DNA of 64,000 bases from a virus, in IMG/VR virus record IMGVR_UViG_3300042731_006881, positions 25,748-89,747 of that record; one strand, given 5' to 3'. Under the pieces are notes generated by a model. The model made no database searches, was not told where the DNA came from, and worked only from the letters and a program-made list of their open reading frames with translations. Both the position numbers and the translations under genes were made by a program. Shown here in pieces: positions 7,477 through 64,000 of the stretch (within the stretch, counting starts at the first letter, position 1; each line of letters opens with the position of its first letter).

Positions 7477-7510
7477 ATCATTCCCCTTCAGGATGGTCAG
7501 AATGGTTGGG

Positions 7511-7960: not shown

Positions 7961-7985
7961 GTTTCACCTGTCTAAAAGACTGCGC

Positions 7986-9185: not shown

Positions 9186-9242
9186 CTGGTCACCAAACCC
9201 CGCGCTTGGCGGTCCTCGTAGTGTTCAGTTAGGTAGCGACGA

Positions 9243-25313: not shown

Positions 25314-25749
25314 CAGAGATGTTGCTTCGCAGGAACGCTAGGTCGTAATCGTCGTTCACAACGTCAATGCACCACCTAGCTAGTTCCTCAAGCGTTGAGA
25401 ATACCGGAGACAGTGGTGTCCCAGGACCAGTTATCATCTCCTCATACAATTGGTATGATGTTGCCTGGTCAGTAGACCATCTAGGCATGTACCACTCAGG
25501 ATCAGGCTTTTGAGTCCACCCGTCAAAAGATACTCCAGACGCTTTGTCTTCCATCATGGCGTCAAAAAGATATCTTCCATACCGATCTGCGTAGGATCCT
25601 GGGATCTCGGTTTCCCATGTCCTTCTTGCTAGTTCATGAGCCTTGCTGTCACGCGCAAACTTCCACCCGTCGAACAAGGGTATGAAATCCCCTTGCTCGT
25701 TGACTGGGTGCTTCCAGTCAGACGTCACTCGTCGTACCTCGCAGCCCAT
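25285..25749 (-). CDS. Hypothetical phage protein
   Basis: REVRRV..W.HP-like N-terminus, YQLYE...GTPLSPVF...EELARW. Confidence 0.55.
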   Translation of the reverse strand: MGCEVRRVTSDWKHPVNEQGDFIPLFDGWKFARDSKAHELARRTWETEIPGSYADRYGRYLFDAMMEDKASGVSFDGWTQKPDPEWYMPRWSTDQATSYQLYEEMITGPGTPLSPVFSTLEELARWCIDVVNDDYDLAFLRSNISGERPWDRRG

Positions 25750-26868
25750 CTACTCAGCCGCCTCCCCACCCAACATCTCCAGCAGCCGCGCGTTCCTGGC
25801 TTCCAAGCTACGCATCTGTTCGTACAGGGTTCGACGCTGCTCTCGTATGCAGTCTATCTTTCCGCAGTTCTCTTCACGCTCAGCCTCAATACGCTTCCTG
25901 AGGACCGCGGCGCGCTGCTCAAGAATTTCGAATTCCTCGTCGATGCTTGGCGTCGATTGGTCAATGGCAACCGTGCAGGTTGCTGTACCTGAGCACCCGC
26001 TACCATCACGCCCCAGCAGATCGTCATCCCCTGGCTTCAGTGCAGCCTCCAGCGCGTCCAGAGTGCGCTCCCATGCCGACGTCTCGCTCCTGGCAGGCGG
26101 CCCGGCAGGGACCAACAGCGGCAGCTCTCCGCCTCCAATCGTCACTGGAGTGAGCTCTATTTCGTCGGATTGCGGTACTGGAGCCCAGTCGTAGCACGCA
26201 GGTGATTCTGGGGTTAGGTCGTCTCCATAGATTTGGCAAACGGAGCACTCCTCTCCGTCCCAGGCTGCGCAACTTCCGCATGTGCGACGATTGATGCCTT
26301 CGGCGCCGTCTACCTTCGCTACTAGTCTCTCATACGCCGCATCTGGGTCGATTCCCTCGGAATCGAGAATACCACGAGCTTCCTCGTCTGACATTGGCTG
26401 GTTGTCGTCTCCGTCGTTCTCTCCGAATGGGCAATCTCCTGCTGTGTCAGCATCATCAACGGATTCGGTGTTAGCGTCTGTTTTCTCTTCCTTCTCCTTC
26501 GCAACGCACGCAACGAACTCATAAAACTCCGATACGGTCTCAACTCCGTATTGGATCGACTGGTCAGTGGCGGCGGTTGCGGACGCCATCTCGACGACAT
26601 GAGTAGGAACCGGAAGTGATGGAACACTATCAGTGTCTTGGCTTTCGTTGTCCTCCAGTAATCTCGTTCGCTCATGGTTGGTCAACCGCCACTTATATCG
26701 GTGGTTCTGCACCGTCCTCCCCTGCCTCATGAGCTCGAGGAGCTCGTCTCCGACCCGGAGCGCGCTGGTCGGATCCGGCATGCCGAGATGCGCGGCGATG
26801 TCATCCGCCATCATGGGCACGCCGCTGGTGTGCAGGGTGGTGATGATTCGTTGCTTTAGGTCAGTCAT
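25750..26868 (-). CDS. Protein with N-terminal wHTH, Cys cluster and coiled coil
   Basis: DIAAHLG...LMRQG..., CGSCAAW...C...C, acidic linker. Confidence 0.55.
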   Translation of the reverse strand: MTDLKQRIITTLHTSGVPMMADDIAAHLGMPDPTSALRVGDELLELMRQGRTVQNHRYKWRLTNHERTRLLEDNESQDTDSVPSLPVPTHVVEMASATAATDQSIQYGVETVSEFYEFVACVAKEKEEKTDANTESVDDADTAGDCPFGENDGDDNQPMSDEEARGILDSEGIDPDAAYERLVAKVDGAEGINRRTCGSCAAWDGEECSVCQIYGDDLTPESPACYDWAPVPQSDEIELTPVTIGGGELPLLVPAGPPARSETSAWERTLDALEAALKPGDDDLLGRDGSGCSGTATCTVAIDQSTPSIDEEFEILEQRAAVLRKRIEAEREENCGKIDCIREQRRTLYEQMRSLEARNARLLEMLGGEAAE

Positions 26869-27113
26869 CGCACTTCGACTCCTTCTTGATGTTCATTCGG
26901 TTGGCTCCCAATGAGCACAGAAGTGTTCATTGGGCACGTATACGTTTCCGAGTTTCCCGCAGTAGCCGAAGGCGTCCGACGCCTCCACAGTCCCGCAGTG
27001 TTTGCACGTGTGGCACGTCGTTTCGTCCAGCACCGCCAGCGCCAGCCGCACACCTTCACCGGTGCCGCCTGGGTGCCTGCGGACGAGCGCCTCGAGCTTG
27101 TCGCGGATGGCGC

Positions 27114-27524
27114 TCACCCCGGCACCCCTTCCAGCTCCTCGAGGATGCGGCGTGCGGCGATGCGCAGTGCTGAAGCTGCTGCGAGGTTCCGTCTTCCTGA
27201 GTCCGCATCCTCTCTCAGCTCGTTCACCAGAGCATTCATCCTGTCGCGCCAGTAGACGCCGTTCTCGCGGTCGTGTCTGGCGATGACGTGACGAACGTCC
27301 TGCAGACTGAAACTGTCGTCCAAAAGCTCGAGCCTTTCGTCGTCAATCCAGCACTCTTGTCCGGCAGAATCTACCGCGTTTCCACGGCGATTTGTCCACG
27401 GACTCCATCGCGACCCATCTGCCAGCGGCGGCAAACCGCCGTCGCTTGGATCCGATTTCTTCTCGCCAGACCACGCAGCACGCGACCCGTTCCACATTCC
27501 AATCATCGTCTCACCTCCGCTCAT
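27114..27524 (-). CDS. Hypothetical protein
   Basis: 136 aa ORF in operon orientation. Confidence 0.4.
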   Translation of the reverse strand: MSGGETMIGMWNGSRAAWSGEKKSDPSDGGLPPLADGSRWSPWTNRRGNAVDSAGQECWIDDERLELLDDSFSLQDVRHVIARHDRENGVYWRDRMNALVNELREDADSGRRNLAAASALRIAARRILEELEGVPG

Positions 27525-27632
27525 GACACTCCTTCACCTGTCGCACTGGTTTTATGTTGAATGCGTCCGCTCCGAGTTGGCGCTCGGGTTGGACATGCCC
27601 CAGTCGGCGTTTAAGCGCCGACTGGAGCTGAT

Positions 27633-27944
27633 TTATCGTCTCCACTTCACTACGGCGTCGATTGCCTCTCTCACGCTCTGCACCTGCACCAGCCTCACTC
27701 CTCGCTCAAGAGCTCTGGTGCGCCACTGCTCTTGAGCTTTCTTCGTCTCTGGGTTGCTTTGGTATCGCCCCGGACGTTTGACTTCGATCCACCCTGGTGG
27801 GTCAACCACGCAGATATCTGGAGTTCCACGTGGCGCTAGTCGCACTCTTCCGACGCGACCTCCTGAGTTGACTCGAAACGCCCAGACCCCAATTCTGCCT
27901 AGAGCATCTAGGATTTCGGATTGGACGTCAGCTTCTCCGGTCAC
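27633..27944 (-). CDS. VRR-NUC / PD-(D/E)xK nuclease
   Basis: EADVQSEI, RVNSG, GTPDI, IEVK, Q..W. Confidence 0.85.
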   Translation of the reverse strand: MTGEADVQSEILDALGRIGVWAFRVNSGGRVGRVRLAPRGTPDICVVDPPGWIEVKRPGRYQSNPETKKAQEQWRTRALERGVRLVQVQSVREAIDAVVKWRR

Positions 27945-28870
27945 GATACCAGCAAAAATGCCTCTGGCCTCTCTGGGGACGGTTCCGGAGAGCCAAACAA
28001 AACCGGAAGACCGGCAACCTCACGAACTCGCCCAGCCACAAGGTCAGTGAATTGCCGCAGAACGATGTCCATACGGAATGGCTGAAGATTCCATTTCACT
28101 CCACCATTTCCAACCCGATAGTTGAGTCGCGCTGGAACTAGCACCAGGTCACCTCCGTCGACCACCGGGATTTCGAGCATCGCTGCCCGAGGGACCCTGA
28201 GCTTCCCGCCGCTCGCATCGCGGTGCTCGACCTCGAACGTGAGCGCTCTCTCGCCGGATTGGAGGTTCTCCTTGTTCACGACCCTCCTACCTTCGACAAC
28301 TTCGAGCCCTCGCGATAGCTCAATCAGTCGCGTCGGGCTGGAGAAGGGGTCTCCACCCATTCGCGATGCGAATCGGCCTGCAACGCTGTCTGGGTCGAGC
28401 TTTGCTGCCAAGGCATCAACGAAGTCGATGTTGCGCTCCTCAAGGAGGATGGCGAACTCCTCTTGAGAGTGCCATGTCTCACCAATATCCGACCAGAATC
28501 TCCACTCTTCAGAGAGAGGGAATCGGTAGTTCGCCCGGTGTGCGCACCACTGCGGGTCGCTTCCTGGTAGGTGGTAGTCATATACCGCAACGAGAGCAGG
28601 TCCATCATCGAGGAATATGACCGAGCTCTCCCTCTTGTTGCGATCAACATGCTCCAGAAACGACTCAATGCGCGTGAACGCAGCGGTGCCAGTGACACGC
28701 TCCGGGAATTCCAGGAACTGGTCAATTAGTGGCTTGAGCGAGACAATTTTCTGACCACCATCCGCGTCTCGCAGGGTTGCCGCTTTTGGCAGTTCTTCGA
28801 AAACAGTAACGTCTGTGATACTGCTGGCGACGTCGTAGAAAGCTTTGACAGCTGCTTGGTCGATATTCAT
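27941..28870 (-). CDS. DUF2303 family protein
   Basis: AVYDYH...WCAHRA.Y....SEEW..W, QEEFA..LEE; start set at MNIDQ. Confidence 0.75.
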   Translation of the reverse strand: MNIDQAAVKAFYDVASSITDVTVFEELPKAATLRDADGGQKIVSLKPLIDQFLEFPERVTGTAAFTRIESFLEHVDRNKRESSVIFLDDGPALVAVYDYHLPGSDPQWCAHRANYRFPLSEEWRFWSDIGETWHSQEEFAILLEERNIDFVDALAAKLDPDSVAGRFASRMGGDPFSSPTRLIELSRGLEVVEGRRVVNKENLQSGERALTFEVEHRDASGGKLRVPRAAMLEIPVVDGGDLVLVPARLNYRVGNGGVKWNLQPFRMDIVLRQFTDLVAGRVREVAGLPVLFGSPEPSPERPEAFLLVS

Positions 28871-28872
28871 TC

Positions 28873-29238
28873 TCAATTCTTCTCCATGGTGAATAGCGGG
28901 CTTTTGCCCCGCTCGAAGTCTAGGTCCTGTTGCCGGCTCGGTCGAGCTGGCTGCATTTCTCCGTCGTCCGTCACGTAGATGACGGTCCTGGAGGTTTTGG
29001 CCTTCGGTGGGGTAGCGCTGAGCGTGTAGCCAACGTCTACAGCTCCATTCTCGTCGCTCTTGTATGAGATTTTGAGCGTGATAACACCATCCGCCTTGCC
29101 CTGCCTGCGAGCGAGGGTCACAACCTTGCACAGTAGCTCCCGCTGCAGTTCTGTTGCTTCGTTGTCGAGGTCTCCCTCTGCAAGATCAGCAACGTGATCA
29201 GAAAACAGTCTCTCTTTTTCTTCTTCAGACATCATACT
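28873..29238 (-). CDS. Hypothetical partner of DUF2303
   Basis: GVITLKISY...PPK.....IYVTDDG pattern typical of the gene upstream of DUF2303. Confidence 0.55.
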   Translation of the reverse strand, partial: SMMSEEEKERLFSDHVADLAEGDLDNEATELQRELLCKVVTLARRQGKADGVITLKISYKSDENGAVDVGYTLSATPPKAKTSRTVIYVTDDGEMQPARPSRQQDLDFERGKSPLFTMEKN

Positions 29239-29977
29239 CATCTCCATTCGCCACGGATGACGACAGCTTCCACCGATTCGAATCGCGAAGCCCTGCGCGG
29301 AGTTCTCCACCCGCATCAACGATCCGAGAATCAGCCAACACAATGGCATCGTCCGACAGGTCGCACCCGAGAAACGATCGCTCGGTTCTCACCGCCGCCA
29401 CCCCAACGGATCCCGAGCCCATGAACGGGTCCACGACGAGTTCGCCGGGTTCTGAGCTTTGCTGAATTAGCACACCGCTAACCTCTGGCGGCTTCTCCGT
29501 TGGGTATCCACCTCGCACATGCTTGCAGGTGATGATGTCAGTGACACTGAGACTGTTTAGCCGCCTCTTCCCCTTCTCGAAGAATAGGATGAACTCATAT
29601 CGACATCGGTAATGATACCCCATTCCCATGTTTACTTTGTCCCACACGAGCGGTTTCCAGAACCGGAACCCAGCCGCTTCTGCCAGCGGCTTCGCGACGA
29701 ACATCGTCTCCTGGTCGCAGAAAAGGTAAAAGTGAGTGTTCTTCTTGAGCACCCGATACACCTCTCGAAAGAGCTCTGGAAAACGCTGATTCGGGAATAT
29801 CTGGAACCAGTCGTTGCTGCTCGCCTTGCTGTGCTTGAGCCGTGTCGTGGTTCCCACCTTCCGGTGCTTTTCGAGTGACTCGTAAGCAGGATCGGTCACG
29901 ACGAGGTCGACCGTCTCGTCCCCGAGTCCTCGGAGCCACTCAACGCAATCGAGTTTGGAGATGTGGTAATCAGCCAT
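29225..29977 (-). CDS. DNA amino-methyltransferase (N4/N6)
   Basis: VDLVVTDPAY, YRVLK, YPTEKP, DPFMGSGS. Confidence 0.9.
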   Translation of the reverse strand: MADYHISKLDCVEWLRGLGDETVDLVVTDPAYESLEKHRKVGTTTRLKHSKASSNDWFQIFPNQRFPELFREVYRVLKKNTHFYLFCDQETMFVAKPLAEAAGFRFWKPLVWDKVNMGMGYHYRCRYEFILFFEKGKRRLNSLSVTDIITCKHVRGGYPTEKPPEVSGVLIQQSSEPGELVVDPFMGSGSVGVAAVRTERSFLGCDLSDDAIVLADSRIVDAGGELRAGLRDSNRWKLSSSVANGDEYDV

Positions 29978-30140
29978 CGATCCCCCATGCGCGGAACGCT
30001 GCGAGTGCTGACGCAACAACGATCAGCAGCATCCATCCCTCAGTTGCGGTGGGACGCTCGCTGGCGCCCATCAGAACCTCCCACTGCTTGCCTTGTGGCA
30101 TGCGTACCCGAGGAGGGAACGCGCTTCCTTGTGGATTCCT

Positions 30141-30845
30141 TCAGCCATTCTCTTCCTCCATTGAAGTTCTCCTGAACTCAGACCAGCACCGGCCAACAAC
30201 CCCTGAGCCAGGGAACAGATCGTCGAGATCATCACCGGGAGACGCTCCCAGCAGATTGAACACCCAAAAGCAGAATCGAATCGGCTTTCGTCCGATGAGA
30301 TTTGAGTCTCCACCGCGAGCCGCTGCAGCCACCAGCGCATCCGGGGGGCCGTTGATCAAGCGTCGCGCCGGCTTCACGAGCACGTACTCGTGAATGTTTG
30401 CAGGTCCACGAGCTTTTGGACGGAAATGAGTCTTCACCCAGGGCGCGACGATGAGTTCATCGTCTCCTGGAGTCGGCGACAGACCGTCGCCACCTGGGAT
30501 GAGAGACAGAATGTATCTCAATGACCTCCGCGACGTCGACAGCGCCCAGCCGTCGAACGTCTCGAGCTGCTCTAGGAGACGCATGTGGTCCACCTCCCCG
30601 GCGAACGTCGGCTGGTCTCGGTAGTAGTGCGCCAGGCCGGGGAATGGCGGGTCCGCATATGCAAGTCGCTTCGTGGTGTCGTCCGAGTACTCTCGAGACG
30701 CCAGCTGCCGAGCTCGCCAAGCGGTCTGTCTACAGCGTTTCGAGCACCATTTTAGCTGCGTCACCTCGAGGTGTCTGCGACACCAGAGACAGCGCCTGTC
30801 GCTGTCTACTCGAGTAGACAGCGACACCTTGGAACGCCCCTTCAT
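30141..30845 (-). CDS. Zn-finger plus DNA methyltransferase-like protein
   Basis: CLWC...CSKRCRQ, AYADPPF, GRKP, DLFPGSG. Confidence 0.75.
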   Translation of the reverse strand: MKGRSKVSLSTRVDSDRRCLWCRRHLEVTQLKWCSKRCRQTAWRARQLASREYSDDTTKRLAYADPPFPGLAHYYRDQPTFAGEVDHMRLLEQLETFDGWALSTSRRSLRYILSLIPGGDGLSPTPGDDELIVAPWVKTHFRPKARGPANIHEYVLVKPARRLINGPPDALVAAAARGGDSNLIGRKPIRFCFWVFNLLGASPGDDLDDLFPGSGVVGRCWSEFRRTSMEEENG

Positions 30846-32146
30846 GCCGCAACCATCGCTTTCTCGCCAAAATTCGCTCTAACCAACGATTCAGCCACCT
30901 CAGGACACACGCTATTTCCAATGAGACGAATCTGGTTCGTCTTCGTTCGCGCCAAGCTCAAATCGTATCCTGAAGCGAATCGCCCGAACTGAGCCGCCAG
31001 GAGCTCGTGCGGCTGGAGCATTCGGAGGCCGACGTCGATGATCTGGTAGTCCACGCCAGCAACCGTCACGATACCGAAACGATTCCGCGCGGTGATGGTG
31101 AGTTGCTTCCCCCCATAGTTCGCGAGAAACGCGCGGACCTCAGCCACGTGCACACCTCCAGCGGAGATGGTTGGAAGAGGAGCATTGATGGGGGCGCTTC
31201 CTGGCTGGCTTGGGTGGGTCCCTCGGAACTTGGCGAGGCAGACTGCGGCCAGGCTGTTGTGGTCCCACGCGGTTACTGTCGGCAGTGGGGAGCGCGCGTC
31301 GCTCCCCACGACGGGCCGTGACCCACCGTAGAAGCGCGAGATAAACGCGCTAACGATGGCGCGCTTCTGGCCTGGGTAGACATCCTGCCCGCGAGTGTTG
31401 CGAACGATGAACGGCTCTGCAGCGTCGAACATGTATCTTTGAATCCCATGGGCGATCCGCCAAAGCGTCTTCTCCGCCAGTGGTCGCTTGCGCTCGAAGA
31501 TGCTCGGGCATGGCATGGACCAGTCAACGCACTCCGCCGCCGTTCTGAGTGGGGCAAGCCCTGGACCGTGCGTGGGGGCTGGCCACTCGATCGCCTGACC
31601 ATCATGACGAGCCACGATGAACAGCCGACGACGCTTCGTCGGCGCCCCATACTCCGAAGCGTCAAGCACGCGCCAGTCCACCGCGTAGCCGAGCTTCCTC
31701 AGATCGCGCACCCACCGGATGAAGGTCTGCCCCCTACGGTCCTTGCTCGGTCGCCCGTCGGGCCCGAGTGGCCCCCAGTCCTCGAACTCTGGAACGTTCT
31801 CGACACAAATCACCCGGGGTCTGGTCTCCCGCGCCCAGCAGACTACTACCCACGCCAGCGACCGAATCCCCTTCGAGCGTGGCTTGCCACCCTTTGCTCG
31901 AGAATGGTGGGTGCAGTCAGGTGATGCCCAAAGGAGCTCAACTGGAGCTCCACCAGTGGCATCTCGTGGTCTGACATCCCAGATATTCGCTTCTAGGTGA
32001 CACGTGCTGGGGTGGTTGTGTCGGTGGACTGCGAGAGCCACTGGGTCGTGGTTGATGGCGATGTTAACAGGACGGCGGAGAGCTGCCTCGATCCCGACCG
32101 AAGCGCCCCCACCGCCGGCGAATAGGTCAACGACAATGCCGCTCAC
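30842..32146 (-). CDS. C5 cytosine DNA methyltransferase
   Basis: DLFAGGGG, WASPDC, ENV, RRRLF, IGNSVCP; start set at GTG 32146. Confidence 0.92.
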   Translation of the reverse strand: MSGIVVDLFAGGGGASVGIEAALRRPVNIAINHDPVALAVHRHNHPSTCHLEANIWDVRPRDATGGAPVELLWASPDCTHHSRAKGGKPRSKGIRSLAWVVVCWARETRPRVICVENVPEFEDWGPLGPDGRPSKDRRGQTFIRWVRDLRKLGYAVDWRVLDASEYGAPTKRRRLFIVARHDGQAIEWPAPTHGPGLAPLRTAAECVDWSMPCPSIFERKRPLAEKTLWRIAHGIQRYMFDAAEPFIVRNTRGQDVYPGQKRAIVSAFISRFYGGSRPVVGSDARSPLPTVTAWDHNSLAAVCLAKFRGTHPSQPGSAPINAPLPTISAGGVHVAEVRAFLANYGGKQLTITARNRFGIVTVAGVDYQIIDVGLRMLQPHELLAAQFGRFASGYDLSLARTKTNQIRLIGNSVCPEVAESLVRANFGEKAMVAA

Positions 32147-32496
32147 TGAATATCCTGTGCTAATCGACGACGAGCTCGATTGCGAGCCGAACTCGAGAAT
32201 GGGAGGACTTTCAAGACCCGCGCTGACTCCACCTCGAAGGAGAGACCATCGACTAGGCAGTCCGGATCGGACGTAATTTCTCCACACGGCTCAACTAGAT
32301 AGATTTGTCCGTTCGGCCACGCGCTTGCGAACATGCGAGCGGCAACCATGGAGGTTGTTACGTAGACTCGATCTCGGCGTGAGATTCCTTCCGCCTGCTC
32401 GCATATGTCTGCGCAGCTCGTCGCACCTGTAACGCTCGGAGGTAGCAACATGTCTCCTTGTTTCCTCCCAGCAGCTCCACCATGGTAGTAGTCCAT
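32143..32496 (-). CDS. Arr-like NAD+ ADP-ribosyltransferase
   Basis: YYHGG...GDMLLP, VYVTT, YLVEPCG...DPD as in Arr (rifampin ART) family proteins. Confidence 0.7.
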   Translation of the reverse strand: MDYYHGGAAGRKQGDMLLPPSVTGATSCADICEQAEGISRRDRVYVTTSMVAARMFASAWPNGQIYLVEPCGEITSDPDCLVDGLSFEVESARVLKVLPFSSSARNRARRRLAQDIQ

Positions 32497-47624: not shown

Positions 47625-48041
47625 GTGGTGGATAGACCTTCGTTCGAAACGATATTCATGGATCTGGCCGAGAAGCTAAGTTTGAGGAGCACCTGCAGCA
47701 GACTCAGCGTAGGTGCAGTGATCACTAGCGCGGATTTCCGGATAGTACTCGCTGTCGGGTACAATGGAAACGCCGCTGGGCTTCCAAATGCGTGTGACTC
47801 CAACACGCCTGGTGCATGCGGGTGTCTACACGCAGAGGAGAATGCTTGCATCTCGTGCACCGAACCGAGAACTACACCGAAGGTATTTTTCTGCACACAT
47901 TTGCCGTGCAAAATGTGTTCGAAAAGAATCATCAACCTGGGCGGAGTGGTTCGCGTTGTTTACCGAGAAGACTACAGACTACGCGACGGTGCTGAGATTC
48001 TTATCACATCCGGGATTGTACTGGAGCATTTCGATCGATGA
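47625..48041 (+). CDS. dCMP deaminase
   Basis: RSTCSRLSVGAVI, GYNG, HAEEN, PCKMC. Confidence 0.92.
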   Translation: MVDRPSFETIFMDLAEKLSLRSTCSRLSVGAVITSADFRIVLAVGYNGNAAGLPNACDSNTPGACGCLHAEENACISCTEPRTTPKVFFCTHLPCKMCSKRIINLGGVVRVVYREDYRLRDGAEILITSGIVLEHFDR

Positions 48042-51867: not shown

Positions 51868-52634
51868 TCGTACTGTGTGCTGACACCGCAGCAGCTCCGG
51901 TTCGAGCACGGCGTGCGCTGTGCGTTCGTCACAAATCATATGAGGCTCCGAACAGCTGCCGCAACATCGTTCTGTGGGACGACTTTCAGGGCTCTTGGAA
52001 GTCACAGTTACACGGGTTTGACACGCTTGTGGTAGTCGGACTGAGCCGCATCATCACGCCTTCGAACCGAGTCAAGGTCGGACAGGTCCTGATGCGCCCC
52101 ATCGACGGCGTTCGGAGAATCTCGGTTGACCGCACGATGTTCATCTCAGAGCCGTGGCGCCTATTCTGGCACTTCAGCTGCATCCGACAGCCGTACCAAG
52201 AGCTTACGGACAGCTATCTTGCGGAGACCCGCTACAAGCAGTCTCTCGATGGATTCCGTGAGGATCCGTTTTCGCTCGCCGAGATCAAGGCGTACTCAGA
52301 CGGAAAAATTCAGGCGCATGGACATCCGTTCTTCGAGTCGTTCGAGGTGACTCGAGTGCCCGTCTCGCAGGAGTGGCACCGTCGGTATGCTGCAGAGAAG
52401 GCGTCAGCGTTCGATGAGGAGCACACACCATCTGCCATCATCAAGCGGCTGGAAGCGGTATCGAGAGAGGCGCTGAAGGATCGCAAGATCCCAACACCAT
52501 CTCGGCTTTTTGCTAACCGTCACCCCGTCGCAATTCAGTCTGACCTGAAGGTGGACGATTTCCTCGTCGGGCGCCTTCGTTACCTAGTTGAGCTCACCAA
52601 TGGCATCCACGAAGCATTTCAACCGCGAGCGTGA
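51864..52634 (+). CDS. Hypothetical protein between IbrB-like and IbrA-like genes
   Basis: GTGA-coupled to the IbrB-like gene and overlaps the IbrA-like start. Confidence 0.6.
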   Translation: MIVLCADTAAAPVRARRALCVRHKSYEAPNSCRNIVLWDDFQGSWKSQLHGFDTLVVVGLSRIITPSNRVKVGQVLMRPIDGVRRISVDRTMFISEPWRLFWHFSCIRQPYQELTDSYLAETRYKQSLDGFREDPFSLAEIKAYSDGKIQAHGHPFFESFEVTRVPVSQEWHRRYAAEKASAFDEEHTPSAIIKRLEAVSREALKDRKIPTPSRLFANRHPVAIQSDLKVDDFLVGRLRYLVELTNGIHEAFQPRA

Positions 52635-53685
52635 GGATGTTCTTACAGCAGCTCGTAGGCGCATGTCGATGGTGTTCGACGAGTTCAAACACGTTGTCGT
52701 TAGCGTTTCAGGAGGGAAGGACAGTTCGGTGATCCGTGAGCTGGCGATCGATGAAGCATGCCGCCGAGGCCGCCGCGTATCGATGTTCTTCCTTGACCAA
52801 GAAGCGGAGTACGCAAGCACTGTGTCGATCATGCGCGACTGGATGCACGACACTCGTATAGACCCGATGTGGTACCAGGTTCCAATTCGCATGACCAACG
52901 CAACCAGCCATGCAGAGTACTGGCTGCGCGCTTGGTGGGATGGTGAAGAGTGGATGCGTGAGAAGGACCCAAACGCGATTACCGCTATCGGAGAGAAATA
53001 CCCAACTCGATTCTATGACTTCTTCGAGTGGATGGAGATGCGATCACCGACATCCACAGCCTTCGTGGTTGGGATGCGCGCTCGTGAGTCGCTCAATCGC
53101 CACCGCTCCACAACGAAAGTTGCTGGGTACAGTGACTGGACTTGGAGCACGAAAACGAAGAACCCAGGAGTATTCCGTGTCTACCCGATATACGACTGGT
53201 TTTTTGGAGACGTTTGGAAATTCATCGCAGACAACGGGATATCGTACAACACGCACTATGATAGGATGTTCGCCAAGCATGGCGCAGACGAGAAACGGAT
53301 GCGAGTGTCGAACCTCATCCACGAGCAGGCGTTTCAATGCCTGGCTGATCTTCAGGAGTTCGAACCAGACACATATGATCTACTTATAAAGAGGCTTGGT
53401 GGAGTTCACGCAGCGGCTCTCTATGCTCGCGAGAAGAGTATTTATTCAGCAGGCGAACTCCCGGATACGTTTCCATCGTGGTTGACCTACCGCGACTACC
53501 TTCTAGCCAGCACCCCATGCGACAAAATCGATCGCTTTCGAAAGCGCTTTTCGAAGCAGCCACAAGACGAAGAGACGTACCGCCAGCAGTGCCGTCAAAT
53601 TCTACGCAACGACTGGGAGAACAACGTCCCGGTTCCAAACACGAGAAAGGAAAGGTTGAGGGAGGTATGGTGGGAGAGATTGTAG
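52600..53685 (+). CDS. IbrA-like PAPS reductase family protein (DUF3440)
   Basis: DVLTAARRR, SVSGGKDS, FLDQEAEY, GMRARESLNR, YPIYDW...DVW, MRVS. Confidence 0.9.
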   Translation: MASTKHFNREREDVLTAARRRMSMVFDEFKHVVVSVSGGKDSSVIRELAIDEACRRGRRVSMFFLDQEAEYASTVSIMRDWMHDTRIDPMWYQVPIRMTNATSHAEYWLRAWWDGEEWMREKDPNAITAIGEKYPTRFYDFFEWMEMRSPTSTAFVVGMRARESLNRHRSTTKVAGYSDWTWSTKTKNPGVFRVYPIYDWFFGDVWKFIADNGISYNTHYDRMFAKHGADEKRMRVSNLIHEQAFQCLADLQEFEPDTYDLLIKRLGGVHAAALYAREKSIYSAGELPDTFPSWLTYRDYLLASTPCDKIDRFRKRFSKQPQDEETYRQQCRQILRNDWENNVPVPNTRKERLREVWWERL

Positions 53686-54323
53686 CGTGGAGCGACGTTG
53701 CCATCGTCATCCCGACGATGGAGGAACGGTCGCATCTGCTGTGTCAGCTTGTGGCAGAGCTGCAGCGCGAGTGTCGAGGAGCACAAATTGCCGTCCACTA
53801 CCACGAGCCAGGATCATCGGCGCGGGTAGACTTCCCAGAGACCATCGATCTCGGAATCACAACGGACCGCCGCTGGATCCTGCAGGTCGAGGACGATGTG
53901 TGGCTGTGCCCTGAATTCGGAGATCGGTGCCTGGGCGGAATCCGATACGCTGAGGCGTCCGACGTCTCAGCCGTGACATTCTTCAGTCGTTCGAAGCGCG
54001 ACGTAGAAATGCTATCAATCGGAAAAACTTGGCGCACTCAGTCGCCAGCGTCTTTCTGCATGATGCAGTGCGTGTCGCTGAAAACCGACGCACTACGAGG
54101 GTTTTCTGCATGGGCTCCGACCTGGTACAACGATCCTCGCAATAGCCACCACCAGCACGCCGCAGACCTACTGCTCGGTGCGTGGCTGTCGCGCAACAAG
54201 CGCAAAATGCTGGCTCACATCCCATCATTGGTGCAGCACAGAAAGGTGAAATCGACACTTACTGGTCACCGTGGAGCCAGGCAATCTGATACGTACAGTA
54301 TAGCGTTCGGTGAGGCCCCATGA
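53667..54323 (+). CDS. GT-A fold glycosyltransferase-like protein
   Basis: IVIPT, LQVEDD (DxD-like), PSLVQH. Confidence 0.7.
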   Translation: MVGEIVAWSDVAIVIPTMEERSHLLCQLVAELQRECRGAQIAVHYHEPGSSARVDFPETIDLGITTDRRWILQVEDDVWLCPEFGDRCLGGIRYAEASDVSAVTFFSRSKRDVEMLSIGKTWRTQSPASFCMMQCVSLKTDALRGFSAWAPTWYNDPRNSHHQHAADLLLGAWLSRNKRKMLAHIPSLVQHRKVKSTLTGHRGARQSDTYSIAFGEAP

Positions 54324-54661
54324 AGATCAACGATCTGGTCAACGCTGCCGCTTCCGAGGGGTGGCGTGTGCGTCCGCCAGAGTTGGAGAAACACCCGATC
54401 CTCAGTGATAGAGGGGATGTTGTAGGTTTTTTTTGCCCTCATTCAGCAGGCAGAGGAAGGTGGCGTGTTGGACCAATCTATGTGCACCCATCACACCGCG
54501 GTCGCGGGCTCGCTGCGCAGGCATACTCTTGGGCTGACGGAGTTCCTCTGGTAGCGTACACGCACGTCGACAACAAGGCGTCCGCTCGGGTGCACGAAAA
54601 GCTCGGCTTCGTCCGCTGGTACACCACACGCTCAGGCGGGCAGTACTGGAAACGTGACTGA
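54320..54661 (+). CDS. GNAT acetyltransferase
   Basis: IYVHPSHRGRGLA, NKASARVHEKLGF. Confidence 0.9.
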   Translation: MKINDLVNAAASEGWRVRPPELEKHPILSDRGDVVGFFCPHSAGRGRWRVGPIYVHPSHRGRGLAAQAYSWADGVPLVAYTHVDNKASARVHEKLGFVRWYTTRSGGQYWKRD

Positions 54662-55460
54662 GCCACGCATCACCGACCACGACCGCCGCATCTGGAGGTC
54701 GTGGTCGGTGACTGCGCGCATGCACTCGCGAACTCGCCATCACAAGCGGCGAGTTGAGAAGGCTCGCGCAGTGGTCTCCGATTTCATCGACCGCGATCCG
54801 TCCGCGATCGTCATGTGGAGCGGAGGGAAGGACTCAACTGCGATGACACATCTCGCGCTTGGTGTCTGTCCCACCATAGATGTCATCAGCGAAAAGGACG
54901 ACCTAGACTATCCTGGTGAGCGTGACTATGTAGAGTGCCTAGCGCGTAAGTGGGTCGCTCAACTCACCATAGTTGAGCCTGCTGTGTCCCCAGCAGAGTG
55001 GATGCGCAAGAACGGACTCTCACTCGCTCCTGGAGACGATATCCACGGAAGGGCTGCAGCAATGAGTAAGGATTGCTTCTATAGCGTCGTCGAGGGTGAA
55101 ACAGCAGGGCGCGGTATCATGCTAGGTCTACGCGCTGAGGAGTCCAAGGGTCGCACCGCAAACAGAGCTACCCGTGGTCTCATCTACCACGCTCGCAATC
55201 AGTTGGTAGCGACTCCTCTTGCTGACTGGTCAGGGCTGGACGTGTACGCATACTGTGAGTCGCATGGGATTGAGCTGCTTCCACTCTATCAGTGCGTATC
55301 GCTCATGCACGCGCGTGAGCCGTGGAGACTGCGAAAATCGTGGTGGGTTCCTGGTGCTCATGGGATGACGGGATCAGTCCAGTGGCTCAGACACTACTAC
55401 CCGTCACTGTACTCCAAGCTTGTTCAGTGGTCGCCATCGTCACAATCGCTAGGTGCATGA
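54654..55460 (+). CDS. CysH-like PAPS reductase family protein (type IV-B associated)
   Basis: WSGGKDS PP-loop, GLRAEESKGR, PLADWSGLDVYAY, WLRHYYP. Confidence 0.85.
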   Translation: MTEPRITDHDRRIWRSWSVTARMHSRTRHHKRRVEKARAVVSDFIDRDPSAIVMWSGGKDSTAMTHLALGVCPTIDVISEKDDLDYPGERDYVECLARKWVAQLTIVEPAVSPAEWMRKNGLSLAPGDDIHGRAAAMSKDCFYSVVEGETAGRGIMLGLRAEESKGRTANRATRGLIYHARNQLVATPLADWSGLDVYAYCESHGIELLPLYQCVSLMHAREPWRLRKSWWVPGAHGMTGSVQWLRHYYPSLYSKLVQWSPSSQSLGA

Positions 55461-58747: not shown

Positions 58748-58812
58748 GTCACGTAAACGTTTTTTGGATGTAGCTAGCAATGTGGAATATATACGTTGGT
58801 ATCGCGCTCGTC

Positions 58813-59937
58813 ATGGAATCGTCATGCATGTCTCCCAGCACCATGCTTCGGACGGCAGGCAGCGGATCACTCTCCGCCGCCGAGATCTACGATCGGCTTC
58901 AGCACGGGCCGGTCGAGGTTGAAGCCTACGACCCGCTATCCCGCGACCCGCTGATGGTCGTTGGCGGGTGTCGAACGAGAGCCCCAGGCGTCCGCATCGA
59001 GTTTGCGGACGGCGCATCGGTTGAGCTTACGAACGGGCACGTCCTATTCGTCTCACAGGACGGTACAGACGACCTGTACCTCCGAGCCCAGGACGTTCGC
59101 GTTGGCGACGTCCTGTCGGACAAGACGGTTGTCTCCGTTCAACAGCTCGGCGAGATCGACGCCATCAGACTCTGGACTGACCGACCAGAGTGGCTCATCA
59201 CTGCCGACGGTGTTGTCATCGGCAGCCGTTGGCAGGAAATCATCTCCGCATGGGGGACATGCGGGATCGAGGTCGAGGACAACCGCGGCCACCGAATCAC
59301 GCGCCATGAGGTTGGTTTCGTTCACGCTCGGTCGCAGGAAATCTGGGATGCCGAGCGGGGTGAAGAGGATCCATATAATGTCCCGTGGGATCACTGGACG
59401 GAACTCGGGGACCGAGAGCACCGGTACCGAGCTTGGAAAGAATCCTCATTCTCGCTCAACACTGTGCACTGGACGGAGTTCATGTCCAGCGCAAAAGGAT
59501 CTGGCGATGGGCAGTTGGACACTGGTCCAGAGGTTGTGCCTGGCTCGGTCCGTGCGACGGGGCGCTGGATCAGAATGCAGGAGGTCACCGTGGACCGGTG
59601 GTCGGTCACGTTCGAAGACGACCGGTTCGCGGCCGCGGCCGACGTTCACACGCTGCCGCGCGAGGTTGCCGAGCAGTGGGTGTCCGAGGTGGCAGGCATG
59701 CCCGAATCCGTGTGGCGGAATTTGGTGCTCGAGTCCTGGGAGGACGCCACCGATATCCATTGGAGCATCATGCTCGACGAGGCGGACGCGGCACAGTTCG
59801 CGCTATGGCTTGAGTCGTGTCCACCGCATCCGTTCCAGCGGACTGTCGCGGCCGAGGTGGCGGATCGCCCGCGTTGGGTCGAAATTGCAGCAGAGTGCGG
59901 TGTCGAGGAGATGCAGGGCTCTCGAGCTGCCGCCTGA
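58813..59937 (+). CDS. Hint (intein-like) domain protein
   Basis: SSC-MSPSTML block A, VELTNGHVLF block B, LRAQDVRVGDVL, ITADGVVIGS end lacking His-Asn; start uncertain. Confidence 0.7.
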   Translation: MESSCMSPSTMLRTAGSGSLSAAEIYDRLQHGPVEVEAYDPLSRDPLMVVGGCRTRAPGVRIEFADGASVELTNGHVLFVSQDGTDDLYLRAQDVRVGDVLSDKTVVSVQQLGEIDAIRLWTDRPEWLITADGVVIGSRWQEIISAWGTCGIEVEDNRGHRITRHEVGFVHARSQEIWDAERGEEDPYNVPWDHWTELGDREHRYRAWKESSFSLNTVHWTEFMSSAKGSGDGQLDTGPEVVPGSVRATGRWIRMQEVTVDRWSVTFEDDRFAAAADVHTLPREVAEQWVSEVAGMPESVWRNLVLESWEDATDIHWSIMLDEADAAQFALWLESCPPHPFQRTVAAEVADRPRWVEIAAECGVEEMQGSRAAA

Positions 59938-59953
59938 TTGGGTACGAAATGAA

Positions 59954-60319
59954 ATGAGAATTCCAAAAAGAATAGATGGACCTTTCGCCACCCGTATTGA
60001 CGGAGCCTGGAAGAGCAGGCGCACACTGGACGCGGCGTGGAGAGCGATTTTAGATTATGCACGTTCCGGTGGTGGAAGTGGTGCTGTAGCGGTTGTTCGT
60101 GTCGATCGCGCCGGTGTTGGGACTCGCGTCGATCCTCCTGAAAGGAGGCCATACGGGAACCGATCCGGATCGACTCGCAGGCAGCGCTCTTTCGTTGTCC
60201 GCATGTCGGACAGCCAACTGGCTGCGCTTGACGCGGCCGCACAAGGAAACTCAATGAGTCGCGAGGCAGCCGTTCGTGCTGCTGTCGAGGAGTGGATATC
60301 ATCATGCAAAGATTCCTAG
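59954..60319 (+). CDS. Protein with C-terminal ribbon-helix-helix
   Basis: SFVVRMSDSQLAALDAAAQGNSMSREAAVRAAVEEW. Confidence 0.65.
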   Translation: MRIPKRIDGPFATRIDGAWKSRRTLDAAWRAILDYARSGGGSGAVAVVRVDRAGVGTRVDPPERRPYGNRSGSTRRQRSFVVRMSDSQLAALDAAAQGNSMSREAAVRAAVEEWISSCKDS

Positions 60320-60825
60320 TAGTCATGGAAGACGGAGTGGTGTGTTCAGCGCACACCAACCGCAGCGGTGATACGGTTGACGTGCGACCGCTGAAGGCCG
60401 TCTGGTGGAAGATGGTTGTCCGTGACGACTACGGTGCAGAGTGGCCGATTAGTGAGCGAGAAATCGCTCGCGAAGAGTGCAATCTAAATTGGGACCGTGT
60501 AACATATGAGGGGACCGTCGATGTCGATGGTGTCCCTCACGCAGTTGTTACTTACACGCGGAAAGAGGTCATCATCGGCTACGATAGAGAGCAGCGTACC
60601 GAAATCCTCGCTCGTGCGGTAGCGAGTCACCAGGAATCAACCACAGATGAGGCGCGATGGGAGGAATTCGTTGCAGATCCAAAATTAACAAATAAGGAAC
60701 GCGGGCGCTTTAAGCGGGTTCGAGGCAACGCCGCTAGATGGCTACTCGAGCGGCGCGGGTTCGCCTGGTCATATGAACGCGAGACTGCAGTCCGCGCTCT
60801 AGTCTGTAGATTGGGTGGAACATGA
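60304..60825 (+). CDS. Hypothetical protein coupled to the Cas12-like gene
   Basis: Stop codon overlaps the ATG at 60822. Confidence 0.55.
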   Translation: MQRFLVVMEDGVVCSAHTNRSGDTVDVRPLKAVWWKMVVRDDYGAEWPISEREIAREECNLNWDRVTYEGTVDVDGVPHAVVTYTRKEVIIGYDREQRTEILARAVASHQESTTDEARWEEFVADPKLTNKERGRFKRVRGNAARWLLERRGFAWSYERETAVRALVCRLGGT

Positions 60826-62780
60826 GCCCCCGTGTCTATTCATTCGGTTGTTCACCACTAGACACAGACTCTATGGAGTCTGTGCAGGGACAGATACAGG
60901 CCTACCACGACCACTACAATGGTCTGGTAGACATCGAGAACGCTCGACGTCTGGCATACGACGCGGCGCGAAGAAGTGCGGTCCCAGGTCTCGTTGAGGC
61001 AGAGGAAGAGATCGCTCCTCTCGAAGCTGAGCTTGCGGCAGCAACCGAAGCTGCAAACCTTGCCGCCCGCACCGGTAAAGGGCCTTCCCCGAAGCGCTGC
61101 CCCGAGGTTGCGCGAATCAAGAAAGCGCTGAAAGCACCGCGAGCACGTGCACGCTCCCTTCGAGCTACCGGCAACGAGATGCTGGCTCCGGGTCATGCCC
61201 GCAAAGAAGAGCTAGACTGCGCCAAGCGTGGAGTTGGAGCGGACGGGAAAAAGCTCGCCGTGGCTCCGAGGATAGCTGAGCGACTCAACGAAGAGGTGAC
61301 AGCTGAGCTTTTGGCTGACGATTCACTCAGCGAGTTCTATCGTGCCGTCGTGGCTCTCGAGGCTGATGCCTTGGCGAAGAGCAAAGCGCTGCGAGGGACA
61401 ACCGGGTGCACCGCCGGAACCTATCTCATGGCCGAGCGGGCATTTGATTCCGCTCGGAAGAAACGCGCGGCTGGACTCCTCCATCGACGCAGATGGGACG
61501 GCGGAGGGAAGGTTGCCGTACAGCTTCGCAAACTCTCTACAGAGGGGCTTTTCCAACAGGCGTCAACGATGCTCCAGGTAGATCGACTTCCATCGAATAC
61601 CTGGGATGATCGGGGGCGCCCCCGAAGAAAACCTAGAAAATACTGCGAAACGCGAGCACGCATTCGATGCGGCTCAGACGGACGCATGCCGGTCTGGGCT
61701 GAGCTTCGAGTCTGGATGCACCAGCCTCTCCCAGCAAATACGTCGATCACATGGGCGTGGCTTCAGGTGCGACGCCACGGAGGAGAGACAACGTACAGCC
61801 TCCAGTTGACACTCGATGGAGACCTGTCTAGGACTGCATCGGGACAGGGAGCATGTGCCATCGATTTCGGTTGGCGCCATATCCCAGACCACGGGCTGCG
61901 TGTCGGATTTCTCCGAGGAGAGGATGGGCATAGGCAAGAGCTGCTGATCCCAGAGCAGCTAGTAAAGAAGCTCGTGCATCCCGACGCGCTACGAAGCGTT
62001 ACGGACACTGTTTTTGCTGACGCCAAGTCGGCATTCCGCGACCTGATGGATGCGGACGACACTCCAGAATGGGTCCGCGAAGAGGGTCAGTACCACGCCC
62101 AGTGGAGGTCTCCTCGTAGGCTCGCCACGATCGTGTGGCGTCGCGTATCTGAAATCAAAAACTCCCAGTCGCTTTGGCACGACTGGGAGCGAGAAAGAAA
62201 GGCTTCAAGGATGGACCTCCTGGACACTCGAGAGGTGATCGAGTCGTGGCTGGCATCCAGAGGCGTTTCCGGGTCAGAGCTCACGTGGCTCTATCTCGAG
62301 TGGTGGCGCAAGAAAAACAAGCATATCTACATGTGGGAGTCATCTCTCCGACTGAAGGCTATCGCTGCTCGGAAAGAGATTTTCCGATGCTGGGCAAAGC
62401 AGATTGCTACTCGATACTCAGACGTCGTGTTGGAAGATTTCGATCTTCGCAACGTGTCCCGCCTTCGGGACGGAGCATCTGAACAGGAGAAGCGGGCAAA
62501 CCACTACAGAACCCTGGCGTGTGTTAGCACGCTCCGAGACGCGATATACAACGCATGCGGAAAGAGCCGCGTGCACAAAATCAACGCGGCGGGCTCAACG
62601 TACACATGCCACGTGTGTGGACATGACTGTCGAGATGACGATACATGGGCTCCAGAACGCAGCGTCACCCACGAGTGTGGCCAGTGCCGCACCGAGTGGG
62701 ATCAGGACGAAAATGCCAGTATCAATATGATCTCCTTCATGCGCGAGAGGTCCGGTGGTGACGCTGAACAAACTCGTTAA
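60822..62780 (+). CDS. cas12m: Type V-M (Cas12m-like) RuvC effector
   Basis: HRRRWDGGGKVAVQL, RIRCGSDGRMPVWAELRVWMHQPLP, AIDFGWR, QWRSPRRLA, VVLED, CHVC/CGQC, WDQDENA match the Cas12m/TnpB layout; array directly downstream. Confidence 0.85.
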   Translation: MSPRVYSFGCSPLDTDSMESVQGQIQAYHDHYNGLVDIENARRLAYDAARRSAVPGLVEAEEEIAPLEAELAAATEAANLAARTGKGPSPKRCPEVARIKKALKAPRARARSLRATGNEMLAPGHARKEELDCAKRGVGADGKKLAVAPRIAERLNEEVTAELLADDSLSEFYRAVVALEADALAKSKALRGTTGCTAGTYLMAERAFDSARKKRAAGLLHRRRWDGGGKVAVQLRKLSTEGLFQQASTMLQVDRLPSNTWDDRGRPRRKPRKYCETRARIRCGSDGRMPVWAELRVWMHQPLPANTSITWAWLQVRRHGGETTYSLQLTLDGDLSRTASGQGACAIDFGWRHIPDHGLRVGFLRGEDGHRQELLIPEQLVKKLVHPDALRSVTDTVFADAKSAFRDLMDADDTPEWVREEGQYHAQWRSPRRLATIVWRRVSEIKNSQSLWHDWERERKASRMDLLDTREVIESWLASRGVSGSELTWLYLEWWRKKNKHIYMWESSLRLKAIAARKEIFRCWAKQIATRYSDVVLEDFDLRNVSRLRDGASEQEKRANHYRTLACVSTLRDAIYNACGKSRVHKINAAGSTYTCHVCGHDCRDDDTWAPERSVTHECGQCRTEWDQDENASINMISFMRERSGGDAEQTR

Positions 62781-62785
62781 ACATC

Positions 62786-62840
62786 GCTTTGCGCATCGGT
62801 ACCAGGTCAGCTACAACTTGATCTGAACCGATCGCAAAGC
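62786..62840 (+). other. Long hairpin between the Cas12-like gene and the array
   Basis: GCTTTGCG/CGCAAAGC, ATCGGT/ACCGAT and CAGGTCA/TGATCTG stacked stems. Confidence 0.6.
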
Positions 62841-62881
62841 ACGCTTCATGTCATTGGAAACTTACCGTTTCTGATTGGGCG

Positions 62882-63544
62882 AATCTACGCCTTGCCCAGA
62901 GGCCTCGTGTCTGGGACCCTGGCCCCTGCTGAGTACGTGAACGATGACGTCAACATCCACGCCTTGCCCATAGGCCTCGTGTCTGGGACTGTGCGGGGCC
63001 GAAGTCACCCCGTGGGTACCGGTCGCATCCACGCCTTGCCCAGAGGCCTCGTGTCTGGGACCGTTAGCGCGCCATTGCCAGTCAGAGTGTTCGGACGACA
63101 GCAACGCCTTGCCCGGAGGCCTCGTGTCTGGGACCGTGCCGCCATCAACCTGTCGCTCAGCTCTCCCATCATCCTCATCCATGCCTTGCCTGGAGGCTTC
63201 GTTTCTGGGACCTGGCTCGGCCGTGTGTGATTGATGGCGATGACTCCATCCATGCCTTGCCCGGGGGCTTCATACCAGGGACCCGAACTGGTGGATGGAC
63301 ATCCATGCCTTGCCCAGAGGCCTCGTGTCTGGGACAGACCGGAACCAGTGTTGCCACGGACCTACACGATCATGCCTTGCTCGGGGGATTCGTTCCCGGG
63401 ACCAGTCCGGTTGTCAGCACTCTGAACGCCGCCACCGCGACAGCAACGCCTTGCCCGGAGGCCTCGTGTCTGGGACCCATCGCTTCGGCCCTCACGATCC
63501 ATTTCGATTCACCACGCCTTGCCCTGGGGCTTAGTGCCAGGGAC
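62882..63544 (+). CRISPR. CRISPR array, 10 repeats of 36 bp and 9 spacers
   Basis: Consensus CATCCACGCCTTGCCCAGAGGCCTCGTGTCTGGGAC starting at 62882, 62954, 63026, 63099, 63176, 63247, 63300, 63367, 63441 and 63509; spacers 36, 36, 37, 41, 35, 17, 31, 38 and 32 bp. Confidence 0.93.
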
Positions 63545-63564
63545 GTGGATAGAGTTCGCGTGTG

Positions 63565-63957
63565 TCACGGATTCTGAACCTCGAAAACGAGAGGGTGAGA
63601 GCGTGGCCAGAACAGAGCGTCTCCCATCTCCTGAGGGCCTAGACCGTCTGGCCAGCGAACGAAGTAGCGAGCACTGAACCTCCCAACCTCAAGCTGAGTG
63701 TCGAAGCTGGTTACGATGCGACCATCCTCCCCATCCGACGCGAACTCTACCCCGGCTGATGTCCAAGCATCTCCAGTCGTAGCGCGCTCCATGGATCGCG
63801 ACCATGCAATAGCGTCACCATCACGCACATCGAAGCGGATCTCTAGCGCTCCACTCAGGTCCACTGGAATCGATTCGCCTCCAGCAATGCGAGAAGTGAG
63901 CGTGTGGTGGAGGCGGTACGACCCTCCAACCACGATTCCGTCAATCGTCGAGATCAT
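63565..63957 (-). CDS. BppU-N-like virion protein (probable end of a late operon)
   Basis: PVDLSGA.EIRF...DG..GRIV...GRFSARYFVRWPDG Ig-like pattern; converges on the array. Confidence 0.5.
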   Translation of the reverse strand: MISTIDGIVVGGSYRLHHTLTSRIAGGESIPVDLSGALEIRFDVRDGDAIAWSRSMERATTGDAWTSAGVEFASDGEDGRIVTSFDTQLEVGRFSARYFVRWPDGLGPQEMGDALFWPRSHPLVFEVQNP

Positions 63958-64000
63958 TCTTCGTCGTCCTCCACCAGTAGGTCATATTCGTTGCCTGCAA

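Follow-up and report, generated by a model that had tools for sequence, protein, structure and literature searches.

The right-hand 64 kb of the 89,747-bp virus record IMGVR_UViG_3300042731_006881 (the window: 64,000 nucleotides, positions 25,748 to 89,747 of the record) encodes a 652-residue Cas12m effector, followed on the same strand by an array of short palindromic repeats, clustered and regularly interspaced (CRISPR). By sequence, fold and repeat the locus belongs to the Cas12m family (type V-M, formerly V-U1). It is a divergent addition to the known branch of that family with an Asp-Glu-Asp (D-E-D) RuvC triad, and it is carried by a phage. Its function is probably RNA-guided DNA binding, which would silence targets without cutting them. 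The features of the locus, in window positions, are as follows.

60822..62780, plus strand: cas12m gene, encoding a type V-M effector of 652 amino acids (aa) and D-E-D RuvC type (open reading frame (ORF), PDB sequence matches and fold)
61719..61724, plus strand: codons of WED His300-Gln301, counterpart of Cas12m2 His269-Arg270 (alignment and counts among relatives)
61863..61865, plus strand: codon of RuvC-I Asp348 (AIDFGWR), aligned with MsCas12m D274
62433..62435, plus strand: codon of RuvC-II Glu538 (VVLEDFDL), nearly invariant among aligned relatives
62607..62687, plus strand: TNB zinc ribbon, C596/C599...C619/C622 (Pfam PF07282)
62706..62708, plus strand: codon of RuvC-III Asp629 (WDQDENA), invariant among aligned relatives
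62781..62881, plus strand: structured intergenic leader, from the cas12m stop to the first repeat (folding)
62882..63580, plus strand: CRISPR array, in which 10 repeats of about 36 nt (CATCCAYGCCTTGCCCRGAGGCYTCGTGTCTGGGAC) enclose nine internal spacers, with a terminal stretch resembling a spacer

The effector and its place in the Cas12m family

The reading frame and motifs given in a preliminary description, made from the DNA letters alone, are confirmed: the 652-aa ORF occupies 60822..62780 on the plus strand, with RuvC-I AIDFG at residue 346 (D348), RuvC-II VLEDF at residue 536 (E538) and RuvC-III DQDENA at residue 627 (D629). The zinc finger it called intact is a complete CxxC...CxxC ribbon formed by C596, C599, C619 and C622, cysteines that are kept in 130–149 of 152 aligned sequences across the four positions. 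A Pfam Cas12f1-like TNB domain, residues 582–636, is matched above cut-off (E = 7e-8). The public gene-caller product, P0001, starts at M18 and has 635 residues; the ATG at 60822 is the better start, because the N-terminal YSFGC strand (RVYSFGC, within the first 17 residues) aligns with the N termini of the solved Cas12m proteins 23vw and 23vu. This segment is modelled as a confident β-strand.

An exhaustive HMMER search recovers 3,020 relatives at E ≤ 1e-3 and 1,054 at E ≤ 1e-30, and the closest relative among 1.8 billion representative proteins is 37% identical. The alignment used for the triad comprises the query and 151 relatives (the 150 best of the 3,020 without the window's own protein, plus three). 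Thirty-five of the 39 positions conserved at ≥85% in the 151 relatives are kept by the phage protein, including the triad and the zinc ribbon, and judged from its sequence the protein looks intact. Its length lies near the family median of 624 aa. Of the extra insertions mentioned in the preliminary description, one, at residues 132–145, is specific to the query (17% occupancy in relatives). The other gains in length over the smallest characterized Cas12m are common to most relatives: the regions that are longer than in MsCas12m, namely the N-terminal REC helices and residues 438–484, are present in 62–92% of them.

Comparison against all PDB sequences gives four Cas12m proteins as the best matches: 23vw (E = 2e-60; 577 aa, chain A, titled 'CRISPR-associated DNA-binding protein Cas12m'), UnCas12m4a (23vu, 1.5e-17), GoCas12m (8pm4, 8e-15) and Cas12m2 (8hio/8hhl, 5e-12). 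The first two (23vw, and UnCas12m4a in 23vu/23vv), the best matches among solved structures, both carry D/E/D like the query; no paper was found on the 23vw or UnCas12m4a (23vu/23vv) entries. An AlphaFold2 model built with 28 family sequences (pLDDT 89.3, pTM 0.81) has the Cas12m fold, composed of the WED domain, a long helical REC domain, a RuvC domain with a helical insertion and the TNB zinc ribbon. Foldseek ranks 1 to 4 for this predicted model are all Cas12m, with template-modelling scores of 0.59–0.70 relative to the query (TMq) and 0.73–0.78 relative to the target (TMt), in a library from which the 23vw and 23vu/23vv entries were absent; these are followed by Cas12f at TMq ≤0.38 and TnpB at TMq 0.32–0.33. 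MmCas12m2 and GoCas12m (8hhl/8hio, 8pm4) share the fold (TMq 0.69–0.70, TMt 0.75–0.78) and the order of domains, and the WED residue His269 of MmCas12m2, which contacts the CRISPR RNA (crRNA), corresponds to H300 of the query. The two differ from the phage protein in their H-D-D triad, as against D-E-D, and are 18–20% identical to it in the structural alignment.

MsCas12m, from plasmid pMESIL02 of Allomeiothermus/Meiothermus silvanus (WP_013159911.1), was recovered by the plasmid database search at 31% identity over 455 aa (E = 2e-54). It has a D-E-D triad and a zinc ribbon, as in the phage protein, and its array likewise lies directly after the gene. The MsCas12m repeats, of 36–38 nt, have their hairpin at the same position and the same ...GAC 3′ end, and also vary within the array; the phage repeat shares ACGCCT.GC.CAG.GGC...CTG.GAC with them. 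The proteins differ in length (536 aa against 652 aa, or 116 more in the phage), with the N-terminal REC helical region and the RuvC helical insertion both longer in the phage protein, and in the Gln that the query has at a conserved WED Arg; the carrier is a plasmid in one case and a phage in the other. Both protein and repeat are homologous to those of Cas12m systems, and the locus is therefore placed in type V-M.

A position intermediate between TnpB and Cas12m, as proposed in the preliminary description, finds no support in these comparisons. TnpB of IS200/IS605 elements, for example that of ISDra2 (8h1j, 8exa), has the RuvC and zinc-ribbon core in common with the phage protein and gives a weak match over its C-terminal 120 aa. 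TnpB is compact (~400 aa), whereas the phage protein is larger by about 250 aa, with REC and RuvC insertions that complete the Cas12m architecture, and is accompanied by a CRISPR array instead of an omega-RNA; TM values are 0.59–0.78 to Cas12m and 0.33 (TMq) to TnpB. Curated TnpB models are not passed: NF040570 (guided_TnpB) scores 31.2 bits against a cut-off of 100, in a match limited to residues 516–636, and NF038281 scores 17.6 against 425. It is thus highly improbable that unrelated repeats simply lie beside an IS200/IS605-type TnpB gene, or beside one for a TnpB-like repressor (TldR). The weak C-terminal matches, which extend to PHROG 'transposase' families (E = 4e-8), would fit such an origin, but the guided_TnpB score falls far below its curated cut-off, the REC and RuvC helical insertions are those of Cas12m, and the adjoining repeats are homologues of those in a bona fide Cas12m array. 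No Y1 transposase (TnpA) was found when all 89.7 kb of the genome were searched in six frames, in agreement with the earlier remark that no transposase was seen; no search aimed expressly at insertion sequence (IS) ends was made.

The repeat array and its leader

The ten direct repeats (62882–63544) start about 100 nt past the cas12m stop and follow one another at a start-to-start spacing of 53–77 nt, with internal spacers of 17–41 nt. Eighteen of the 40 alignment columns are invariant, all of them from column 9 onwards, and the first eight columns vary; every copy ends in GGGAC. Columns 17–25 form a hairpin with columns 29–37, in which 94.4% of 72 cells pair, compared with 18–53% when the partner is slid by 1–3 columns. 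In two of the eight hairpin pairs both partners change (from A-U to G-C or U-A), and the covariation score was reached by 1 of 500 shuffles, a figure to be read with the caveat that the structure was derived from the same sequences. A repeat profile (nhmmer) finds only these ten copies in the genome and no anti-repeat on the opposite strand of the whole genome, which is consistent with a system free of trans-activating crRNA (tracrRNA). Among Rfam families none reaches its gathering score, and a single chance-level match lies in the array.

The leader is itself strongly structured. The 102 nt at 62781–62882 fold with a minimum free energy of −40.6 kcal/mol (z = −6.0; none of 200 shuffles was as stable) into two very stable hairpins, the first of which has no U-tract after it. 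These hairpins might act as an attenuator or a leader element, or as a signal for processing.

Compared with the phage's own genome, all ten spacers give chance matches only, of ≤12 nt. The whole array has no match among PLSDB plasmids, and its best match among GenBank phages, 30 of 34 nt in mycobacteriophages (E = 0.3), is taken as chance. Comparison of arrays from related loci with the phage genome, and of the phage's spacers with those loci, gave only a stretch of cas12m coding sequence that they have in common.

The D-E-D triad, cleavage and silencing

The 152 aligned sequences contain 101 D-E-D triads (100 of the 151 relatives, and the query), 15 N-E-D, 9 N-D-D and 7 N-G-D, the rest being scattered. 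In HMMER alignments the triad columns read D-E-D in 23vw and UnCas12m4a and H-D-D in Cas12m2 and GoCas12m, so that the column of D348 holds Asp in the first pair and His in the second. A FastTree phylogeny of 155 sequences, to which five viral loci were added and from which two fragments of <480 aa, a duplicate (L011) and a partly matched locus (L014) were left out, places the query in a five-member clade that is D-E-D throughout (support 0.954) and is nested in larger clades of mixed triads; D-E-D occurs in 102 of the 155 members.

Four Cas12m clades were defined by Wu et al. 2022, of which clades 3 and 4 have D-E-D, N-E-D or D-N-D triads (as cited in the available part of Omura 2023, PMC10442227). 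The Asp-Glu-Asp of the D-E-D clades (3 and 4) is found in the phage protein as D348, E538 and D629. The preliminary description was right about the His at RuvC-I of MmCas12m2: HMMER pairs caiDfgwr of the query with vaLHlgwr, and H-D-D is the triad given by Omura 2023. The retention of D-E-D is nevertheless not special to the phage protein, as had been supposed, since the triad is shared by 100 of its 151 closest relatives and by the two best PDB matches, and the clades that carry it had already been described.

Published experiments, cited here from the available parts of the papers, bear on whether such a triad cuts. Of the eight Cas12m proteins that Bigelyte et al. 2024 (PMC11013384) chose, four are D-E-D; none of the eight was reported to cut double-stranded DNA (dsDNA), and six bound it in a manner dependent on the protospacer-adjacent motif (PAM); PAM-dependent binding of dsDNA with no cutting is described there for D-E-D, H-D-D and N-D-D proteins. 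In the same report purified MsCas12m showed no cleavage of DNA or RNA, in cis or in trans, and its pre-crRNA processing was unaffected by the D274A mutation. According to Omura 2023 (PMC10442227), conversion of the Cas12m2 triad from HDD to DED failed to restore cleavage, and in the RuvC site of Cas12m2 the non-target strand is bound by way of a single Mg2+ ion, which would explain conservation of the triad without catalysis. The suggestion that the phage protein is possibly cleavage-competent is therefore unsupported: all four D-E-D Cas12m proteins tested gave no dsDNA cleavage, and MsCas12m, whose D274 aligns with D348, cut neither DNA nor RNA. What stands of the preliminary description is a Cas12m-family phage effector whose triad is D-E-D and whose zinc ribbon is intact, with an array beside it, and which is not an IS element; the special triad, the cleavage competence and the TnpB intermediacy do not.

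It is accordingly unlikely that the phage Cas12m, by virtue of its intact D-E-D triad, destroys its targets as a true RNA-guided DNA nuclease or nickase, a reading with a variant in which native conditions or a host cofactor, missing from published assays, may be required for the activity. The protein has its three catalytic carboxylates and its zinc ribbon, and the recurrence of D-E-D in the 155-sequence tree over deep divergence (~30–37% identity) suggests that the site is under selection. DNA hydrolysis by clades 3 and 4 was raised as a speculation in Omura 2023; nuclease activity is suggested for MvCas12m of a myxophage, without a test in the available part of that preprint (bioRxiv 10.64898/2026.09.14.751636); and a phage-encoded mini-Cas12 that depends on host thioredoxin exists (PDB 9jfs). 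Against a nuclease stand the four D-E-D proteins assayed without dsDNA cleavage, the lack of DNA or RNA cutting by MsCas12m, the HDD-to-DED change that gave none and the Mg2+-mediated binding of the non-target strand, by which the site could be conserved without catalysis. The closest solved structure, 23vw, was moreover named a 'DNA-binding protein' by its depositors.

Silencing by binding would proceed as follows. The array would be transcribed on the plus strand, and Cas12m would grip the conserved 3′ part of the repeat, comprising the hairpin and the terminal ...GGGAC. The crRNAs would be matured without a tracrRNA to carry a 5′ repeat handle and a guide of ~17–20 nt. The complex would then find PAM-flanked complementary dsDNA and form a stable R-loop, blocking transcription or replication of the target with no cut. 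For a phage, the likely targets would be competing phages, plasmids or host genes.

Several points weigh against a functional system of this kind, in addition to the speculation of Omura 2023. No protospacer was found for any spacer in the searches made. The exact scans, covering four of the ten spacers over their first 24–26 nt with zero mismatches tolerated, gave 0 matches each for S1 and S3 in IMG/VR, S4 and S1 in JGI metagenome contigs and S8 in GTDB genomes. No sigma-70-like promoter site was found in 59800–64000. The repeats are unusually divergent (65–100% identity to the reference copy) and one spacer has only 17 nt, both of which may mean decay. The absence of cleavage is judged from relatives that are only 31–37% identical. 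Lastly, Gln301, the most striking of the four departures from the 39 conserved positions, replaces an Arg that is present in 150 of the 151 relatives and in all seven viral relatives.

This last replacement can be set beside Cas12m2, in which His269-Arg270 contact the last repeat nucleotide, C(−1), and stabilize the G(−23):A(−2) pair (Omura 2023, PMC10442227), Arg270, the counterpart of Gln301, stacking on the last repeat base. Alanine mutation of H269/R270 is reported in the available part of the same paper to have had little or no effect on processing. The Gln301 codon, CAG, is one transition from CGG. Gln301 is regarded here as probably a minor variant; an AC end is kept by all ten repeats.

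The same observations could be those of a decaying relic: a system that has ceased to function, whose array, lacking an adaptation module, has drifted. The divergence of the repeats, their irregular spacing of 53–77 nt with the 17-nt spacer, the loss of the near-universal Arg, the absence of spacer targets and the absence of cas1 and cas2 (six-frame searches of the whole 89.7-kb genome found no Cas1, Cas2 or tyrosine integrase) would all be expected of it. The reading is nonetheless improbable. The 652-codon frame is uninterrupted and keeps the conserved positions, the whole triad and the zinc ribbon; the changes in the repeats preserve the hairpin, with compensatory pairs, and leave GGGAC invariant; and a 17-nt spacer would still be usable, published mature Cas12m guides being ~17–20 nt long. 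Similar variation of repeats within an array is present in the experimentally active MsCas12m array and at other viral loci, and this, together with the intact gene, argues against a dead locus.

Divergent repeats with a kept hairpin and no adaptation genes fit either an old, fixed guide set on which selection still acts or slow erosion. In the first case the array might be a hard-wired guide set, not an immune memory, with the non-cutting Cas12m as a built-in CRISPR interference (CRISPRi) device, an idea that we put forward tentatively and consider rather doubtful. The lack of adaptation genes, the diverged repeats and the compensatory hairpin changes would then imply long-term selection on fixed spacers, and CRISPRi directed at host genes would explain why no spacer matches viral or plasmid databases. 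If this were true, specific host, resident prophage or plasmid genes would be switched off during infection.

Phage-borne Cas12m loci and the surrounding genome

Cas12m in a phage or prophage is already in print. Type V-M has been reported for 'some prophages' in a review, and MvCas12m, encoded by myxophage MV-1, is called the first Cas12m found in a phage (bioRxiv 10.64898/2026.09.14.751636). The available part of that preprint describes a phage-encoded D-E-D protein with an adjacent eight-spacer array, with no cas1, cas2, cas4 or tracrRNA and with no spacer targets found. MvCas12m has 610 aa and the triad D305/E463/D555, compared with 652 aa and D348/E538/D629 here; the two are set side by side by description only.

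A search with the single phage protein found no close viral relative. A scan of IMG/VR with a degenerate pattern from a six-sequence alignment identified seven loci with Cas12m relatives (25–31% identity) on contigs of 54–138 kb, two of which are identical, leaving six distinct loci. The array lies directly 3′ of the cas12m relative in five of these six, one of them with more than 33 repeats; of the six relatives, four have a D-E-D triad, one D-D-D and one N-D-D. The locus described here and the six other distinct viral loci show that Cas12m-plus-array cassettes recur on large phages. GenBank Virus Rctr197k encodes a further relative, annotated 'transposase', and the only relative recovered from GTDB genomes belongs to a metagenome-assembled genome of Sorangium (myxobacterial), at 30% identity and with the same gene-then-array layout. 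A degenerate repeat pattern gave six single matches in IMG/VR, none with a second repeat or a cas12m gene, and these are taken as chance.

Two of the viral arrays are described here in more detail. On a 131-kb IMG/VR contig (L009, positions 6070–9200), the Cas12m relative is 31% identical and D-D-D, and its more than 33 repeats are arranged in two blocks about 880 nt apart, in which two repeat variants are intermingled. On a 110-kb IMG/VR contig (L013), repeats lie on both sides of the cas12m relative, two upstream (3808–3908) and seven downstream (5847–6326).

The record that carries the present locus has a 70-nt terminal overlap, is classed as having direct terminal repeats and has a CheckV completeness of 100%. 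Together with genes for a tail sheath, baseplate J, major head, portal and both terminase subunits, and for DnaB, it bears out the phage origin that had been claimed. Other genes encode helicase loaders, a RecE-like exonuclease, several DNA methyltransferases and a GH25 lysozyme. No close relatives of the phage were found among GenBank phages; for its terminase and capsid, only distant relatives scattered across taxa turned up. The locus DNA was found in one sequencing run only, which is labelled wetland metagenome and is the probable source; no RNA run was found with it.

Two ORFs precede cas12m:

59954..60319, plus strand: 121-aa ORF with a C-terminal ribbon-helix-helix (CopG) domain (PF01402, 21.3 bits against a cut-off of 20.5, E = 2.5e-4)
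60292..60825, plus strand: 177-aa ORF of no known family, directly 5′ of cas12m (ORF list)

The cas12m start and the stop codon of the 177-aa ORF overlap in ATGA. The 177-aa ORF has no match in Pfam, PHROG or Atlas. The two ORFs and cas12m lie on one strand with overlapping ends and have the look of an operon, of which the ribbon-helix-helix protein might be a regulator. Neither ORF has homologues beside cas12m in the related loci examined, and they are therefore not conserved cas12m partners.

Elsewhere in the window, an 820-aa DnaB-like helicase (18979–21438, minus strand) matches its family in two separated stretches, and its middle (about residues 200–560) matches PHROGs labelled terminase or primase instead; the split suggests, from sequence matches, a possible inserted element such as an intein. 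A 385-aa ORF (58780–59934, plus strand) has very weak Hint/intein-like similarity (E = 0.03, under cut-offs). A DnaD-like helicase-loader gene contains, at 22155–22352, seven perfect copies of the hexamer TCAGGA and a 12/24-nt tandem repeat. Genes for DNA modification are densely set at 23697–32287 (minus strand), 47625–48038 (plus strand) and 52588–55457 (plus strand), and comprise three DNA methyltransferase-like genes, a dCMP deaminase and two genes with a PAPS-reductase domain, one of which also has DUF3440, with a small GNAT acetyltransferase between the two. This set suggests a heavy investment in anti-restriction DNA modification.

The locus adds to the family a divergent Cas12m, ≤37% identical to any of the representative proteins searched, and a further example of phage-borne type V-M. 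Its practical value would be modest, as a compact and, by analogy with its relatives, naturally binding-only candidate for CRISPRi or base-editor scaffolds. For the biology of Cas12m it sharpens two questions: why D-E-D persists in roughly two thirds of a family in which the members tested do not cut, and at which targets phages direct their Cas12m arrays.

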